Of a stretch of 64,000 bases of DNA, positions 13,462 through 26,502 are shown in pieces. Position numbers and translations under genes: made by a program. Numbering within the stretch: position 1 is the first letter of the stretch; each line of letters begins with the position of its first letter. The notes under the pieces were generated by a model that ran no database searches, was not told the DNA's origin, and worked only from the letters and a program-made list of their open reading frames with translations. Origin of the DNA: a virus (taxonomy: Duplodnaviria > Caudoviricetes). Location of the stretch: IMG/VR virus record IMGVR_UViG_3300028805_003982; one strand, written 5' to 3'.

Positions 13462-13533
13462 AAACCGTGTTATAATAATTAAGTAGGTAACCAACAAGGA
13501 TACCTACAAAAGAACCTTGATAATTATCATATA

Positions 13534-16433: not shown

Positions 16434-16500
16434 AATTTAGGTAACAAATCTAAATTTTTATGTTATAATGCAATTGATGAAATAGAAAAGGAGAAGATGC

Positions 16501-16578
16501 ATGAGACACTTTGTATCGCAGTCAAGTTCATTGCAGCGCTGTCAAACCGGCAGTTCTGTATTGCCGCGGTCACGGTGA
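16501..16578 (+). CDS. putative attenuator leader peptide 1 (MRHFVSQSSSLQRCQTGSSVLPRSR)
   Basis: TGTTATAAT promoter at 16461, AAGGAG RBS at 16488, 25 codons including 7 Ser and 3 Gln. Confidence 0.8.
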   Translation: MRHFVSQSSSLQRCQTGSSVLPRSR

Positions 16579-16618
16579 TCTTCTCCTTGTCTTCATTACT
16601 GCTTTCTTTTAATGAGTG

Positions 16619-16651
16619 AGGGTCGTCATTGTGATGACCCTTTCAGTTTTT
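16619..16651 (+). terminator. intrinsic terminator of attenuator 1
   Basis: AGGGTCGTCA-ttg-TGATGACCCT followed by a T-rich tract, directly before the first tRNA. Confidence 0.8.
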
Positions 16652-16655
16652 ATAC

Positions 16656-21485: not shown

Positions 21486-21575
21486 GGCAAAAAACACCTG
21501 TTGAAAAATAAAATTTAGAAAATTACGATTTTTCTGTTGTATTTTTAAAATGTGGTGTTATAATAGTAAGTGATG

Positions 21576-21790
21576 AAGGAAGTGCCTGTCCGACATCTGA
21601 TTACAAAAGACCTAAGGGCTGAAACGGGTCAGGTCCAATCGCCCGGTTAGGTGTGTGAGGGAAGTGAGGTTGGTCGCCGCAAGGTGTAAAGTCCTCCGCA
21701 CTCAAAGTGATGATGAAACATGCATCCGCCTAATCTTTAACCTGAAGGGTCCCCAAGATTGTAATCAGTTGTGAGATAAGGGCTTCCTCT
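21576..21790 (+). ncRNA. rod-shaped structured RNA, 6S-like
   Basis: Promoter TTGTAT-N16-TATAAT at 21537-21564; nested helices GAGGAAG/CTTCCTC, CTGATTACAA/TTGTAATCAG, GGTTAGGTG/CGCCTAATC around a central bubble. Confidence 0.55.
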
Positions 21791-21820
21791 TTTTATACTT
21801 AAACGAAAGGATAAAAGACT

Positions 21821-21979
21821 ATGGTTACTGTTGTTATGAAGAGACATAACGATCTGATGCCCAAGGCGTATGAGAATGATACGCTCGGTTTCGCATGGTC
21901 TTTAGTTCCGGCTATATTCGTACGTACATTGGGTACAGGCAAAGAATATATCGGAAGCAAGGGGCGATTAAGATGTTAA
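21821..21979 (+). CDS. putative attenuator leader peptide 2 (52 aa, codon-diverse)
   Basis: GAAAGGA RBS; MVTVVMKRHNDLMPKAYENDTLGFAWSLVPAIFVRTLGTGKEYIGSKGRLRC; 38 distinct codons. Confidence 0.75.
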   Translation: MVTVVMKRHNDLMPKAYENDTLGFAWSLVPAIFVRTLGTGKEYIGSKGRLRC

Positions 21980-22020
21980 TCACAGCTTTTGTTTAAGCTC
22001 AAACAGAATAGAGAAGCATC

Positions 22021-22060
22021 AAGGATCGCCCGAAGAGAATAAAATCGGACGATCCTTTTT
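22021..22060 (+). terminator. intrinsic terminator of attenuator 2
   Basis: AAGGATCG..CCGA / TCGG..CGATCCTT hairpin plus T tract upstream of the tRNA array. Confidence 0.8.
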
Positions 22061-22103
22061 AATTCTCGTGAACATTGACAACTGAATATTTTCTTTTAAA
22101 CAT

Positions 22104-22177
22104 TCCCCTGTCATTTAAAGGTAGGATGGCTGACTGTTAATCAGTTTATGGAAGTTCGATTCTTCCCGGGGGAGCCA
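22104..22177 (+). tRNA. tRNA-Asn(GTT)
   Basis: Loop CTGTTAA, GCCA. Confidence 0.85.
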
Positions 22178-22181
22178 ATAT

Positions 22182-22256
22182 ATCCGCATGGTGTAATCGG
22201 TAGCACGGCAGTCTCCAAAACTGCTTGTCGGGGTTCGAGTCCTCGTGCGGGTGCCA
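22182..22256 (+). tRNA. tRNA-Trp(CCA)
   Basis: Loop CTCCAAA, GCCA. Confidence 0.9.
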
Positions 22257-22352
22257 TATGAAAAGTAAAAAGGAAAAAGTCAAGGATACATTGTTGACCA
22301 AGGTGAAGTCCGGAATGATCTGAGGAAGAGAATGTAACACCGATAAGTATTC

Positions 22353-22421
22353 TGAGCAATGGTGTAAGCGGAAGCACGCAGAGTGATGGCCGGAAGTGCA
22401 GGTTCAAGTCCCGCTTGCTCA
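22353..22421 (+). pseudogene. tRNA-like element lacking a proper anticodon stem and CCA
   Basis: TGAGCAA/TTGCTCA acceptor, D-arm and GTTCAAGTC T-loop present. Confidence 0.55.
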
Positions 22422-22435
22422 CTTTTCATTCTTAT

Positions 22436-22510
22436 GCCCCTGTGGTGTAACCGGTAACATGACTGACTCTGACTCAGTTATTCAAGGTTCAAATCCTTGC
22501 GGGGGTGCCA
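22436..22510 (+). tRNA. tRNA-Gln(CTG)
   Basis: Loop CTCTGAC, GCCA. Confidence 0.9.
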
Positions 22511-22596
22511 TTAGAAGGTTAGTAAAGAAAACAGGCACTCTTTACGGATCTTCTGCGGGGATGATGAAAAACAGGCACTTTCTTCATCCCTTACAT

Positions 22597-22683
22597 GGGT
22601 CGGTAAACCGTAACTGGTAGCGGGACGGACTGTAAATCCGTTGTCGAGAGACTCTGTAGGTTCAAGTCCTACCCGGCCCACCA
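22597..22683 (+). tRNA. tRNA-Tyr(GTA)
   Basis: Loop CTGTAAA, long variable arm. Confidence 0.9.
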
Positions 22684-22692
22684 TTTTAAAAC

Positions 22693-22768
22693 GGATCGGT
22701 AGCTCAGTCGGTAGAGCGAGGGACTGAAAATCCCTGCGTCACAGGTTCGATTCCTGTCCCTTCCACCA
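22693..22768 (+). tRNA. tRNA-Phe(GAA)
   Basis: Loop CTGAAAA, CCA. Confidence 0.9.
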
Positions 22769-22771
22769 GAT

Positions 22772-22846
22772 GTTCTCCTAGTTCAACGGCAGAACAACGG
22801 ACTCTTAATCCGTGAGATCGGGGTTCAAATCCCCGGGGGAGCACCA
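22772..22846 (+). tRNA. tRNA-Lys(CTT)
   Basis: Loop CTCTTAA, CCA. Confidence 0.9.
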
Positions 22847-22914
22847 TAACCATTAAAGAGAAAGGAGAAGACACATGTTGCACAAACAGAAGTTAAACGT
22901 AGGTGTATTGACAA

Positions 22915-22989
22915 GCGTCTATAGTTTAACGGTAGAACAGCGGACTTTTACTCCGTAAGATGAGGGTTCGAATCCCTCTGGGCGTACCA
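22915..22989 (+). tRNA. tRNA-Lys(TTT)
   Basis: Loop CTTTTAC, CCA. Confidence 0.85.
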
Positions 22990-23062
22990 TATATGGGTCT
23001 GTAGCTCAACCAGGAGAGTTATCTCTAAAGAGTTGCAAAACTCCCGCAGCGCCGTTTTATAA

Positions 23063-23140
23063 CACGCGTTGGAGAAGAGGTCTAACTCGCCGGCCTTTCA
23101 AGTCGGTATTCGCTGGGTTCAAATCCCGCACGCGTGGCCA
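23063..23140 (+). tRNA. tRNA-Glu(TTC)
   Basis: Loop CTTTCAA, GCCA. Confidence 0.85.
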
Positions 23141-23266
23141 AAGAAACTCTAAGTGAAACGAGTAGGTCGTGTCTTGACACTAAGGCGATAACGATGCATC
23201 TGACTAAACTGAAGTGACGAAAGAAGTAACTGAAAAGGAGTCGCTCTCCCTGAGTTTCTGATCTAT

Positions 23267-23340
23267 GGCCCTTTCTTCTATCGGCAGGAAAGCAGGTTCT
23301 CAGCCTGACAAGCAGGGTTCAACTCCCTGAAGGGTCACCA
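23267..23340 (+). tRNA. tRNA-Glu(CTC)
   Basis: Loop TTCTCAG, CCA. Confidence 0.85.
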
Positions 23341-23436
23341 ATGGGCAGCGGTTGTCCGGCGGCATAGAAAGGGTTCAAGTCCTGCACGCGCGGGTTCGAC
23401 TCCCGGCGTACATGGTGTCGAAATGCCGCATTTCAT

Positions 23437-23513
23437 ATCCTCGTGGCGGAACGGGCAGACGCAGACGGTTCAGAGCCGTAAAGTTACAGGTTCAAATCCT
23501 GTCGGGGATACCA
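23437..23513 (+). tRNA. tRNA-Leu(CAG), short variable arm
   Basis: Loop TTCAGAG, ACCA. Confidence 0.8.
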
Positions 23514-23517
23514 AAAT

Positions 23518-23595
23518 GGCCTCGTAGCAGAATCTGGCATATGCACTGCACTAAGGATGCAGGGTTTGCGGGTTCGAATCCCGCCGGGGCTACCA
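23518..23595 (+). tRNA. tRNA-Leu(AAG), short variable arm
   Basis: Loop CTAAGGA, ACCA. Confidence 0.8.
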
Positions 23596-23599
23596 ATAT

Positions 23600-23673
23600 C
23601 CGGGTGTAGCGTAATGGCAGCGTTCGTGCCTTGGGAGCATGAGGTGTGGGTTCAACTCCCGCCACTCGGACCA
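23600..23673 (+). tRNA. tRNA-Pro(TGG)
   Basis: Loop CTTGGGA, ACCA. Confidence 0.9.
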
Positions 23674-23678
23674 TTTAT

Positions 23679-23752
23679 CGTAGCTTCTTCTAATGGTAGG
23701 AAGACCGTCTGATACGCGGTTAATGTCTGTTCGATTCAGTCAGCTACGACCA
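23679..23752 (+). tRNA. tRNA-Ile(GAT)
   Basis: Loop CTGATAC, ACCA. Confidence 0.8.
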
Positions 23753-23829
23753 TGGGGCATAGCTCAACAGGTCAGAGCTCCGGCCTTATAAGCCGGCGGT
23801 TCAGGGTTCGAGTCCCTGTGCCCCTACCA
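23753..23829 (+). tRNA. tRNA-Ile(TAT)
   Basis: Loop CTTATAA, ACCA. Confidence 0.85.
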
Positions 23830-23832
23830 AAT

Positions 23833-23909
23833 GTCTGATTGGCGCAACTGGCAGACGCGGCTGACTCAAAATCAGTTTCTTCAGGGTTCGAGTCCCTGAT
23901 CAGACACCA
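23833..23909 (+). tRNA. tRNA-Leu(CAA), short variable arm
   Basis: Loop CTCAAAA, ACCA. Confidence 0.85.
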
Positions 23910-24074
23910 GTCGGGAGTACACGCGAGAATCACAAGCGGGCCGACGGTACATCGGCAGCCTGAACAGGATTAGGTGCACATGAGTCCTTAAGGGCAACGG
24001 CGGGGTAGTGTCCGTCCTCCCACACCAACGAGTTCTTTGCCTTTTTCTCTCCAAAAGAAATCGGTGACCGGTAT

Positions 24075-24151
24075 GCTTCCGTAGCTCCAATTGGCAGAGC
24101 GGGTGCCTTGTAATCACCAGGTTGTGAGTTCGAGTCTCACCGGAAGCTCCA
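24075..24151 (+). tRNA. tRNA-Thr(TGT)
   Basis: Loop CTTGTAA, CCA. Confidence 0.9.
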
Positions 24152-24155
24152 ACAT

Positions 24156-24230
24156 ACTCCTGTCGTTCAACTGAAAGGACAGCACTCTTCTAAAGTGTCG
24201 ATCAAGGTTTGAGTCCTTGCAGGAGTACCA
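24156..24230 (+). tRNA. tRNA-Arg(TCT)
   Basis: Loop CTTCTAA, CCA. Confidence 0.85.
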
Positions 24231-24355
24231 TTAAAAAACACGATAGCTTGGTAATTTGCTGAAGTTAGCTGCAAGGATAGGATATCGGGTAATCAGCAAA
24301 ACCTTAGTCCGAAAGTAGCAGAGAGGGTTTTTGAAGCCGTGTTTCCCTCATTTAT

Positions 24356-24432
24356 GGGGCCATAGCTCAGTTTGGGAGAGCGCCTGCCCTGCAAGCAGGA
24401 GGTCGCGGGTTCGATGCCCGCTGGTTCCACCA
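24356..24432 (+). tRNA. tRNA-Ala(TGC)
   Basis: GGGGCCA start with G3:U70, loop CCTGCAA. Confidence 0.9.
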
Positions 24433-24578
24433 TTGCAAATTAAGCTGCCGGAATGAACCATTCCTATATCAGCGGTCCTGCTGATGAAACTAAACGATTG
24501 AAAGAACAACCAGGCAGCAGGAATTTCTGCAAAGCCTTTATTTACAAGGCTTTAGCAAAAACCGGGAAGGGAGGGACT

Positions 24579-24668
24579 GTATATAAAAGTATTATTTTGT
24601 ATTGCTTTGTATTGTGATGTACCGATTAAATAATACGTATTTATTTGTATGTCTTTGTATTGCTGTAT
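24579..24668. repeat. 10-bp-phased GTAT repeats
   Basis: GTAY at 24579, 24589, 24599, 24609, 24619 and again at 24637, 24647, 24657. Confidence 0.65.
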
Positions 24669-24720
24669 AGTGTCAAACACAGTTATATATTTACAAAACA
24701 ATACGCGATCTTTGATAAAT

Positions 24721-24797
24721 GCCCGTATAGCTCAGCTGGGATGAGCATCTGCCTTACAAGCAGGAGGCCCAAGGTTCGAACCCTTGTGCGGGCACCA
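24721..24797 (+). tRNA. tRNA-Val(TAC)
   Basis: Loop CTTACAA, CCA. Confidence 0.9.
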
Positions 24798-24802
24798 AAT
24801 AT

Positions 24803-24877
24803 GCAGGTATTGTATAACGGCTATTACGCTACCTTGCCAAGGTAGAGATGAGGGTTCGATTCCCTCTACTTGCTCCA
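24803..24877 (+). tRNA. tRNA-Gly(GCC)
   Basis: Loop TTGCCAA, TCCA. Confidence 0.9.
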
Positions 24878-24882
24878 AATAT

Positions 24883-24969
24883 GGGTGAGTATCCCGTAAC
24901 AGGCAGCGGACCAGACTGTAAATCTGGTGTCATTCGACTCAGGGGGTTCGAGTCCCTCGTCACCCACCA
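24883..24969 (+). tRNA. tRNA-Tyr(GTA)
   Basis: Loop CTGTAAA, long variable arm. Confidence 0.9.
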
Positions 24970-24976
24970 ATCATAC

Positions 24977-25051
24977 GGCCCTATGGTATAACGGCTATTA
25001 TGCCGGACTGTCTATCCGGAGACCGGGGTTCAACTCCCCGTGGGGTCGCCA
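24977..25051 (+). tRNA. tRNA-Asp(GTC)
   Basis: Loop CTGTCTA, GCCA. Confidence 0.9.
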
Positions 25052-25056
25052 ATTAT

Positions 25057-25131
25057 GTGCCATTGGTGTAATCGGCAGCACCTTAGTCTTCCAAACTAAC
25101 GGTACGGGTTCAAGTCCCGTATGGCACTCCA
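25057..25131 (+). tRNA. tRNA-Gly(TCC)
   Basis: Loop CTTCCAA, TCCA. Confidence 0.9.
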
Positions 25132-25135
25132 GTAT

Positions 25136-25210
25136 CGCGGCGTATTTTAATGGTAGAATGCGATCCTCATAAGATCGTCGGTACGGGTTCAAGTCCCGTC
25201 GCCGCCACCA
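25136..25210 (+). tRNA. tRNA-Met(CAT) (Met or Ile2 identity unresolved)
   Basis: Loop CTCATAA, ACCA. Confidence 0.8.
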
Positions 25211-25214
25211 AAAT

Positions 25215-25289
25215 GTGGTTATTAGTGTAACGGCAGCACGGCAGATTGTGGCTCTGCAAGCATAGGTTCGACCCCTGTATTTCCACCCA
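25215..25289 (+). tRNA. tRNA-His(GTG)
   Basis: G-1:C73, loop TTGTGGC. Confidence 0.85.
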
Positions 25290-25292
25290 AAT

Positions 25293-25366
25293 GCTTCTAT
25301 CGTTCAAGGGAAGGACAGCACTCTTCGAAAGTGCTTATCGGGGTTCGAATCCCTGTGGAAGCACCA
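25293..25366 (+). tRNA. tRNA-Arg(TCG)
   Basis: Loop CTTCGAA, CCA. Confidence 0.85.
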
Positions 25367-25378
25367 ATTCCTTAACAT

Positions 25379-25454
25379 GCTTCCGTAGCTCAGCCGGCAG
25401 AGCGGCGGTATCGTAAACCGCAGGTCGTGAGTTCGATCCTCGCCGGAAGCTCCA
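25379..25454 (+). tRNA. tRNA-Thr(CGT)
   Basis: Loop ATCGTAA, CCA. Confidence 0.9.
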
Positions 25455-25634
25455 ATTATTTTTGCTTATACGGCGGTCTACGCGGCACCTTTTGGATTAT
25501 CCGCGGTTATAATTAAATCATAATGATGCCCTCCGAAGTCTTCGGACTGACGGTTAAAGACGAGCGTTTTCGAACGTGAGCAAAGTAGGTGATAAGTCAT
25601 CCAACTGCGAGTCGCAAAAGGCAGATTTATAAAT

Positions 25635-25710
25635 GCTCCTGTAGCTCAGTCGGTAGAGCACGTGACTTTTAATCACGGGGCCAAGAGTTCGAACCTCTTC
25701 AGGGGCACCA
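25635..25710 (+). tRNA. tRNA-Lys(TTT)
   Basis: Loop CTTTTAA, CCA. Confidence 0.9.
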
Positions 25711-25714
25711 TTAT

Positions 25715-25791
25715 CTCCCGGTACCAGAACTGGCATATGGACCGGACTTAAAATCCGGGGTTTGCGGGTTCGACCCCCGCGCGGGAGACCA
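25715..25791 (+). tRNA. tRNA-Leu(TAA), short variable arm
   Basis: Loop CTTAAAA, ACCA. Confidence 0.8.
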
Positions 25792-25971: not shown

Positions 25972-26463
25972 ATGTTCAGATCGGCAAGCGGTCAGGAAAT
26001 GACTGTGGACGAGATAATCAATAAGATCGCCCGTTACATAGCATCTGACCCTGAAGCATCTTACGAGTTTACGGTGGGTACGGACAGCCAGAACCACGAC
26101 AGGACAAAGATGGTCGAGGTTATCGCGGTACACCGGAAGGGAAGGGGCGGAATATATTTCTATAACGTCGAGTATGTCCGCCGCATTAACAGTTTAAAGC
26201 AGAAGATCAATGAAGAAACGGCAAGAAGCCTTAACATCGCAAACGGGCTTATCGACAGGCTTGAATTAAGGCTTTATGAAGATAACATTGATCTGACGAC
26301 TTTAGATGTTTCTTTCCAGATCCACTGCGATATAGGGCCTTGCGGCAAGACGTCCATGCTCATCCAGGAGATCGTAGGATGGGTAACAAGCTGCGGCTAT
26401 ATCTGTCTTATCAAGCCTGACAGTTATGCAGCAAGCGGCATTGCCGATAAGCACAGTAAATGA
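25972..26463 (+). CDS. RNase H-like YkuK (DUF458) family protein
   Basis: VGTDSQ, IHCDIG, KPDSYAASGIADKHSK. Confidence 0.85.
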   Translation: MFRSASGQEMTVDEIINKIARYIASDPEASYEFTVGTDSQNHDRTKMVEVIAVHRKGRGGIYFYNVEYVRRINSLKQKINEETARSLNIANGLIDRLELRLYEDNIDLTTLDVSFQIHCDIGPCGKTSMLIQEIVGWVTSCGYICLIKPDSYAASGIADKHSK

Positions 26464-26502
26464 TACCAGTTCCTTAACTTTATTTGGTTAAGGAGCTTTT
26501 AT

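Follow-up and report, generated by a model that had tools for sequence, protein, structure and literature searches.

The attenuators of amino-acid operons (trpL, hisL, pheL, thrL and ilvL) consist of a short translated open reading frame (ORF) followed by mutually exclusive antiterminator and terminator structures; the position of the lead ribosome decides between the two, and a ribosome at the stop codon favours termination. In this study, we analysed a 64,000-nt stretch of DNA (hereafter the window) from the IMG/VR virus record IMGVR_UViG_3300028805_003982 (Duplodnaviria; Caudoviricetes), in which a comparable arrangement precedes an array of 29 tRNA genes. The region in front of the array contains an open ORF with a ribosome-binding site, a terminator ahead of the cargo, an antiterminator sharing a strand with this terminator and, judged from geometry, an overlap between the ORF and the switch. 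It is likely that this region is a ribosome-dependent (leader-peptide) transcription attenuator that gates the 29-tRNA operon, and the switch itself appears well supported both structurally and comparatively. tRNA genes are usually described as promoter-controlled. In most accounts, the tRNA arrays of phages and plasmids assist codon usage or replace tRNAs cut by defence systems, and their regulation is rarely addressed. In full-text literature searches, we did not find leader-peptide attenuation described for tRNA genes or arrays.

The locus differs from the amino-acid-operon attenuators in several respects. Its 52-codon leader contains no run of regulatory codons and no matching to the cargo, it resides on a mobile element of Firmicutes, and the cargo consists of tRNAs rather than enzymes. 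The layout has three parts (arms A, B and C), and a conserved 1:2 anti-antiterminator was not found. The nearest published mechanisms are those of bmrB-bmrCD and tlrB (yxjB) in Bacillus subtilis. In the former, slowed translation of a 53-residue leader promotes the antiterminator, so that the ribosome serves as a general sensor of impaired translation (PMC4191407). The present locus shares with bmrB a Firmicute setting, a leader of similar length without an amino-acid-specific run, and a terminator/antiterminator pair at the 3' part of the ORF. However, the cargo of bmrB is a multidrug ABC transporter, the system responds to ribosome-targeting antibiotics (PMC4191407), and it has no sequence similarity to the leader described here. 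tlrB likewise combines a leader peptide, an intrinsic terminator, a TTNTTT motif between leader and cargo, and a C-terminal R-X-R (PMC6851288). Its leader has only nine codons. Tylosin stalls the ribosome on this leader, which keeps transcription from terminating, whereas at the present locus termination should be promoted once a ribosome has reached the end of the ORF. T-box riboswitches are also terminator/antiterminator devices of Firmicutes that report on the tRNA pool, but they bind one uncharged tRNA directly, contain no ORF, and control aminoacyl-tRNA synthetase or amino-acid genes. A T-box was rejected for this locus, as no Rfam match was obtained at the gathering threshold or at E values up to 10 and the antiterminator lacks a T-box bulge. 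The architecture, with its geometry assessed in constrained folds and its leader free of amino-acid-specific codon runs, fits the translation-stress type represented by bmrB and tlrB.

Leader ORF and alternative helices

Relatives of the locus were found in metagenome contigs by using as bait the RNaseH-like gene (PF04308) that borders the array on its 3' side. The bait identified 52 metagenome loci (54–85% identity); most of those scanned carry tRNA genes, and many contain long arrays ending at this gene. A homologue of the leader is present in ten loci (L129, L116, L115, L127, L133, L121, L122, L120, L112 and L106), with 70–82% identity in the switch, and the arrays behind these leaders begin with tRNA-Asn or with tRNA-Tyr followed by tRNA-Asn. 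A near-identical copy (L001; 97–98%) was obtained from direct searches. The leader was not found in the distant array-bearing loci L104, L110, L136 and L140. Among GenBank phages and PLSDB plasmids, the leader region and its neighbours had no DNA or protein match except for matches to tRNA or nrdD genes. Exact DNA patterns derived from the 5' RNA and tRNA-Asn had no match in viral, metagenome and genome collections, and a BLAST search of positions 21560–22103 against 401 genomes from the family of G004, a metagenome-assembled genome labelled Lachnospiraceae, returned chance-level matches only.

The leader ORF (21821–21979; this and all features of the promoter, leader, switch and array lie on the + strand) comprises 52 codons and a TAA stop codon, and its peptide ends in GRLRC. 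The Shine-Dalgarno sequence GAAAGGA (21805–21811) is located 9 nt 5' of the ATG, a spacing typical for genes of the element, and is invariant in 11 of 11 aligned sequences, with spacers of 8–13 nt. The frame is open in all 12 sequences (49–58 codons): frame 0 contains no stop codon, and the other two frames contain 37 and 51. In 11 of the 12 sequences, the frame ends with TAA or TGA at the same site inside arm A of the antiterminator (..CGATTACGATGTTAA); in L129, a 1-nt deletion moves the stop five codons downstream, to a TAG in the apical loop. Pairwise pN/pS values of the leader, where computable, are 0.57–0.95, and the changes are about evenly distributed over the three codon positions. Because the frame, the ribosome-binding site and the stop position are kept while the peptide drifts near-neutrally, the pattern is that of a regulatory leader, in which translation, but not the peptide product, appears to be selected. 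The coding score of the leader in the window lies between those of genes and of spurious ORFs, and the folding of the ORF body is not unusual (z = −1.0 against shuffles).

The possibility that the ORF is instead a small protein gene with its own terminator has to be considered. In this case, the 52-residue peptide would be functional, either at the membrane or in drug-dependent arrest at R-X-R, and the array would be expressed by leaky read-through. The ORF is conserved and is called by gene finders on public contigs, the centre of the peptide is mildly hydrophobic with an AFGSV..AP-like motif, and the C-terminal RLR/RFR fits the R/K-X-R/K macrolide arrest motif (PMC6851288). However, the pN/pS values and the even spread of changes over codon positions do not suggest a selected protein, and the conserved stretches coincide with RNA helices, namely arm A and an internal hairpin. 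The peptide has no Pfam family match, and its only match among 5.8 billion proteins was a 96%-identical copy, with no protein homologue beyond such near-identical copies. Furthermore, arrest at RLR would place the ribosome over arm A and so favour termination, a strange arrangement for a system that is meant to be induced. We therefore regard a small protein gene as very unlikely. The internal hairpin is located at 21865–21885 of the window (columns 63–85 of alignment A2), where GCGTAT..ATACGC is found here and AACGC-N9-11-GCGTT in relatives; its position is kept with compensatory changes, such as GCAC..GTGT in L133.

The final six codons of the leader and its stop codon form arm A (21962–21977), which consists of the 5' strand of helix H1 (GGGCGATT, 21962–21969) and the 5' strand of helix H2 (GATGTT, 21972–21977); the stop codon (21977–21979) overlaps H2. 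Arm B (22015–22033) is the shared strand: AGCATC (22015–22020) pairs in H2, and GATCGCCC (22024–22031) pairs either in H1 or with arm C of the intrinsic terminator (TCGGACGATCC, 22045–22065, with a T-run at 22056–22060). The terminator hairpin (22021–22057) has a predicted energy of −15.5 to −16 kcal/mol and is followed by T5 at 22056–22060. The pairing of 21962–21977 with 22015–22031 that the initial annotation had read from the sequence was recovered in our analysis; it overlaps the 5' arm of the terminator (22021–22060), and the resulting A:B antiterminator is the minimum-energy fold of 21805–22075. The antiterminator duplex beats 98% of dinucleotide shuffles (P = 0.02, or 0.047 when the strict arm is used); the z value of the long hairpin against such shuffles is −4.9. 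Constrained folding, which had been proposed together with the annotation, behaved as an attenuator should: masking of arm A, as by a ribosome at the stop codon, switched the fold to the terminator, whereas masking in mid-ORF left the antiterminator in place. In L001, an A-to-G change in the terminator retains the pair as G.U.

To assess conservation among the relatives, RNAalifold was run separately on the A-to-B segment (alignment A3) and on the B-to-C segment (alignment A4). H1 consists of nine pairs. Pair 7-74 is intact in every sequence, being A-U in six of them and G-C in the other four, and compatible variation is also seen at pairs 6-75, 10-71 and 12-69. H2 (GATGTT with AGCATC, GATATC or AATATC) retains five or six of its six pairs in 8 of 10 sequences. 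The terminator, with 11–12 pairs, is conserved in 10 of 10 relatives, and its pairs 11-46, 13-44 and 24-37 have changed on both sides. In the antiterminator, 94% of cells are paired, compared with 35–53% when the partner is slid, and its covariation score was reached by 2 of 500 shuffles; the corresponding figures for the terminator are 97.5%, 26–56% and 31 of 500, but because the sequences are related, none of these figures is a probability. In full-length leaders, the two conformations lie within approximately 0–10 kcal/mol of each other, often with a slight advantage for the terminator, and such near-balanced energies would suit a kinetic, co-transcriptional switch. The initial annotation had named beforehand the conservation of the antiterminator in relatives as one of the points on which its reading could fall, and the antiterminator is conserved. 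Together with the conserved open frame, the stop codon inside the antiterminator arm and the compensatory changes in both helices, this strongly supports the attenuator reading.

One position of arm B covaries perfectly with arm A (columns 7/74 of A3; 16/41 of A4), and the corresponding B:C pair is a C-A mismatch or a U.G wobble in 7 of 10 sequences. The terminator seems to be held weaker than the antiterminator at this position.

Between arms A and B lies an apical hairpin, TTTTGTTT-AAGCTC-AAACAGAA (21987–22008), whose helix is 96% paired and in which TTTGTTTA (21988–21995) is invariant. The hairpin sequence (TTTGTTTAGGCACAAACAA) is almost invariant, beyond what pairing needs. The invariant TTGTTT within TTTGTTTA (21989–21994), located 10 nt after the stop codon, fits the TTNTTT motif at which NusG of Gram-positive bacteria pauses RNA polymerase, the motif occupying positions −11 to −6 of the non-template strand relative to the pause site (PMC9963633). 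In the trpE and tlrB leaders, TTNTTT pauses control the gene that follows (PMC9963633, PMC6851288), and the tlrB pause synchronises the polymerase with the ribosome on the leader peptide (PMC6851288). By analogy, we infer that RNA polymerase pauses at approximately position 22000, some 20 nt past the stop codon and before arm B has been made, and there awaits the ribosome.

The exceptional conservation of the apical hairpin, which goes far beyond the needs of a spacer, would also be consistent with a trans-acting factor (a protein, a tRNA or the 5' domain of the transcript) that binds this hairpin or the long hairpin and replaces the ribosome as the effector. The strong constraint on the 5' domain (see below) points in the same direction, and the genes of the element include one for a sigma factor of its own and many for proteins without an assigned role. 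However, such a switch leaves unexplained why an open frame of approximately 53 codons with a fixed ribosome-binding site, start and stop is maintained while its peptide drifts, and why the stop lies inside arm A. No T-box or other Rfam family matched, and the TTNTTT pause motif is a simpler reason for the invariance of TTTGTTTA. A trans-acting effector is thus improbable, and we prefer the ribosome-dependent attenuator.

Codon content of the leader

The initial annotation had further described the leader as a codon sampler that lists the anticodons of the array, so that a shortage of any one tRNA would induce the array as in an OR gate. Our recount agreed with its figures. The leader contains 38 distinct codons among its 52 sense codons and an exact codon for 21 of the 27 anticodons (those missing are CAC, CAG, CCA, CTT, GAC and TAC); five further anticodons (His, Pro, Leu-AAG, Asp and Tyr) are represented by a synonymous or wobble codon only, and for Gln there is neither. 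In the permutation test suggested at the time, with codons drawn from the codon usage of the element, at least 21 of 27 exact codons were obtained with P = 0.014. The same threshold gave P = 0.006 against real 52-codon windows, P = 0.018 against random-composition ORFs, P = 0.06 with the amino-acid sequence fixed and P = 0.11 with 38 distinct codons fixed. When the bases of the ORF itself were shuffled into stop-free frames, 38 distinct codons had P = 0.05, and a neutral open frame already yields approximately 34–35 distinct codons. The coverage is thus nominally unusual, yet weak and post hoc, and the accompanying caveat that the terminator/antiterminator geometry is the stronger evidence was upheld.

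The homologous leaders were more informative, because they precede arrays of 5, 12, 15, 19, 20, 23 and 35 tRNAs. No enrichment of exact codons for the own array was found in the ten relatives (P = 0.10, 0.53, 0.08, 0.16, 0.30, 0.75, 0.69, 0.70, 0.70 and 0.25), compared with P = 0.023 for the leader of the window in the same comparison. The share of exact-cognate codons equals the background (e.g. 0.34 vs 0.42 and 0.23 vs 0.24). Codons for amino acids absent from the array make up approximately 26–40% of the leaders in front of 12–19 tRNAs, and up to approximately 40–60% in some relatives. Regulatory codons for the cognate amino acids are enriched or clustered in leaders of the trpL/hisL class; across the ten leaders, they are not. 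The high coverage in the window can be attributed to the combination of a nearly complete array and an unconstrained 52-codon frame.

In favour of a codon content selected to list the array anticodons, one may cite the 21 of 27 exact codons (P = 0.006–0.023), the codon diversity, which is at or above the mean of a gene-based null in all ten leaders, and another leader in the same window that is clearly matched to its tRNAs. However, the absence of own-cognate enrichment before arrays of 5–23 tRNAs (P = 0.08–0.75), the background level of cognate codons, the near-neutral peptide and the P values of 0.06 and 0.11 under the fixed nulls all speak against it. Against stop-free shuffles of each ORF, the diversity has a mean z of only 1.0 (P from 0.04 to 0.79). 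In addition, the last nine or so codons are unable to signal, as a ribosome there covers arm A, and 18 of the 27 exact codons are left in the effective part. Tuning of the leader codons to the tRNAs of the array is therefore not supported, and the codon sampler as a selected design appears to be largely refuted; we consider it unlikely, about as much so as a trans-acting effector or slightly more. What survives of the OR gate is that slow decoding anywhere in approximately the first 43 codons plausibly signals, as a by-product of the layout and not as a selected design. Because neither the peptide nor the codon choice is tuned to the array, we read the device as a general sensor of translation progress, not of particular tRNAs.

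The matched leader mentioned above lies at 16501–16578 (region 16461–16655) and encodes the peptide MRHFVSQSSSLQRCQTGSSVLPRSR. The five amino acids of the downstream tRNAs (Ser, Thr, Gln, Arg and Cys) account for 16 of the 24 residues (P = 2.5e-6). Its Shine-Dalgarno region pairs with GATCTTCTCC just past the stop codon (anti-Shine-Dalgarno pairing), and a stable terminator is present at 16618–16642. As a structural replicate of the switch it was rejected, since no clear antiterminator was seen in its fold, and no homologue was found in the fetched loci.

The upstream transcript and the proposed mechanism

A candidate promoter is located at 21537–21564, with a −35-like TTGTAT (21537–21542) and the extended −10 sequence TGTTATAAT (21556–21564). 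The TGNTATAAT motif occurs 12 times in the window against 2.75 expected, and copies precede the three largest tRNA clusters (at 13468, 16461 and 21556). No TGNTATAAT promoter is present between the leader and the array or within 22104–25791. In the relatives, the promoter is kept at the equivalent place. A 248-aa protein is encoded upstream; it has no relative among viral contigs, and its homologues at 30–40% identity are found in loci without tRNA arrays.

The promoter is followed by a structured 5' domain of the transcript of approximately 226 nt (21572–21797), for which the predicted fold has a closing helix followed by T5 at 21790–21794. Compared with L001, this domain contains a single indel in 231 nt, whereas the flanking genes differ by 3.0–3.6%, and its copy in L129 (L129:5391–5612) shares 94% identity with that of the window, although the leader ORFs of the two have diverged. 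Most relatives have at the same place a hairpin of approximately 60 nt (−29 to −33 kcal/mol) followed by U6-7, with compensatory changes in its apical part. In the window and L129, the tip of this hairpin is replaced by approximately 170 nt, which yields the 226-nt domain; L106 has no 60-nt hairpin between promoter and leader. The 5' arm of the hairpin (GATGAAGGAAGTGCCTGTCCGACATC) is nearly invariant. In every sequence, an ATG is located 7–9 nt past the −10 box, so that the transcript may be leaderless at its 5' end. The mini-ORF starting there (MKEVPVRH.., 10–27 codons; region 21573–21650 in the window) spans the invariant 5' arm in the window, L116, L115, L127, L133, L121, L122, L112 and L129. 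Its translation could melt the first hairpin-terminator and thus provide a second, translation-dependent checkpoint ahead of the main leader.

The 5' domain has no match among Rfam families. By eye, GUAAAGUCC (~21693–21701) and GGGCUU (21780–21785) resemble the strands of helix P4 of RNase P, a weak lead that nothing else supports. A minimal RNase P RNA was rejected, because, in comparison with real class A RNase P, only AAAGUCC and GGGCUU are similar to P4 strands, and no model matched.

Taken as a ribosome-dependent attenuator, the locus would operate as follows. Transcription would start from the TGTTATAAT promoter and proceed through the structured 5' domain into the 52-codon leader ORF. 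Arm A would form the 5' arm of a long hairpin, whose 3' arm, B, doubles as the 5' arm of the terminator (B:C plus T5, 22021–22060). If the ORF is translated without delay, the lead ribosome would reach its end and cover arm A while the polymerase is just downstream, probably held by a NusG-type pause at TTGTTT; arm B would then pair with arm C, and transcription would end ahead of tRNA-Asn. If the ribosome is late, owing to slow decoding in approximately the first 43 codons or to a lack of initiation, A:B would form once B emerges, arm C would remain single-stranded, and the polymerase would continue into the array. Slow translation would thereby cause the element to raise its own tRNA supply. 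Translation of the ORF, the direction of this regulation and the physiological signal are inferred.

Several points weigh against this mechanism. The main caveat to a simple one-switch model is the upstream hairpin with its U-tract, which lies between the promoter and the leader and should end most transcripts early; the model leaves this unexplained. The covariation is modest and comes from few independent lineages, L112, L120 and L122 being near-duplicates. In several relatives, the terminator conformation is as stable at equilibrium as the antiterminator or more so, and read-through as the default without a ribosome would depend on the co-transcriptional order of events. Functions of the RNA or of the nascent peptide could underlie the conserved C-terminal RLRC as well as the internal hairpin (AACGC..GCGTT). 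Finally, transcription in B. subtilis tends to run ahead of translation, with the polymerase leaving the ribosome behind, and Firmicutes seldom use classical leader-peptide attenuation.

A broader interpretation, which we put forward tentatively and at less than even odds, is that, in a family of large mobile elements from rumen Firmicutes, a throw-away ORF of approximately 50 codons reads the decoding capacity of the host and that a near-complete set of tRNAs is switched on only when this capacity drops. The same joint interpretation, held with the same reserve, includes the second, upstream checkpoint, in which the 5' hairpin-terminator is overlapped by the possible leaderless mini-ORF.

The tRNA array and its mobile element

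The window contains 43 tRNA genes. The 29 genes detected by ARAGORN in the array (22104–25791), which represent 27 distinct anticodons and begin with tRNA-Asn(GTT), would be the regulated cargo. A conserved CTTGACAAC-type box (22074–22083) is located between the terminator and the first tRNA gene, and its core TTGA.AA is invariant in alignment A2; this CTTGA(C/A)AAC box is kept in all relatives, approximately 20 nt 5' of the first tRNA. A promoter at this site was rejected, because TTGACA at 22075–22080 would put the −10 element at the 5' end of the tRNA gene and the start site inside the tRNA.

Within the array, the gaps at 22340–22425 and 23930–24030 contain tRNA-like pieces not called by ARAGORN (a T-arm-like GGTTCAAGTCC and an end ..CCACACCA), which may be degenerate or unusual tRNAs. 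A 160-nt AT-rich stretch with repeated TTGTATTGC motifs (24560–24720) could be an internal promoter or a cluster of binding sites, a point relevant to whether the array is transcribed as a single unit. In many contigs from rumen metagenomes (loci L099–L150), as in the window (25972–26463), an RNaseH-like (PF04308) gene borders a long tRNA array on its 3' side, which suggests that this gene is functionally linked with tRNA arrays. In the window, it is followed by a terminator-like hairpin and T-run at 26468–26502, ending 5 nt ahead of tRNA-Arg(CCT). The tail TTTTTATAC recurs behind the hairpins at 16642 and 21789, and a shortened version, TTTATAC, is present at 26468–26502.

The genes of the element include nrdD, TraX, PcfJ, integrases, a sigma-70 factor and TnpB, together with the many proteins without an assigned role. 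The nearest PLSDB match of its nrdD is pCY360 of Butyrivibrio proteoclasticus, and the same leader peptide was found on a 235-kb contig. The gene content, the 235-kb contig and the relatives in rumen metagenomes lead us to consider the element as a large and probably conjugative mobile element of rumen Firmicutes.

The switch is a compact part, extending over approximately 260 nt from the ribosome-binding site to the terminator, and ten natural variants are available. It would extend ribosome-mediated attenuation, which is rare in Firmicutes, to non-coding cargo. If the decoding-capacity interpretation is true, the locus would be an on-demand circuit for tRNA replacement, for example after tRNA cleavage by anticodon nucleases, in starvation or upon exposure to ribosome-targeting drugs. 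A conserved attenuator in front of tRNA arrays would show that mobile elements couple their tRNA supply to measured translation performance.

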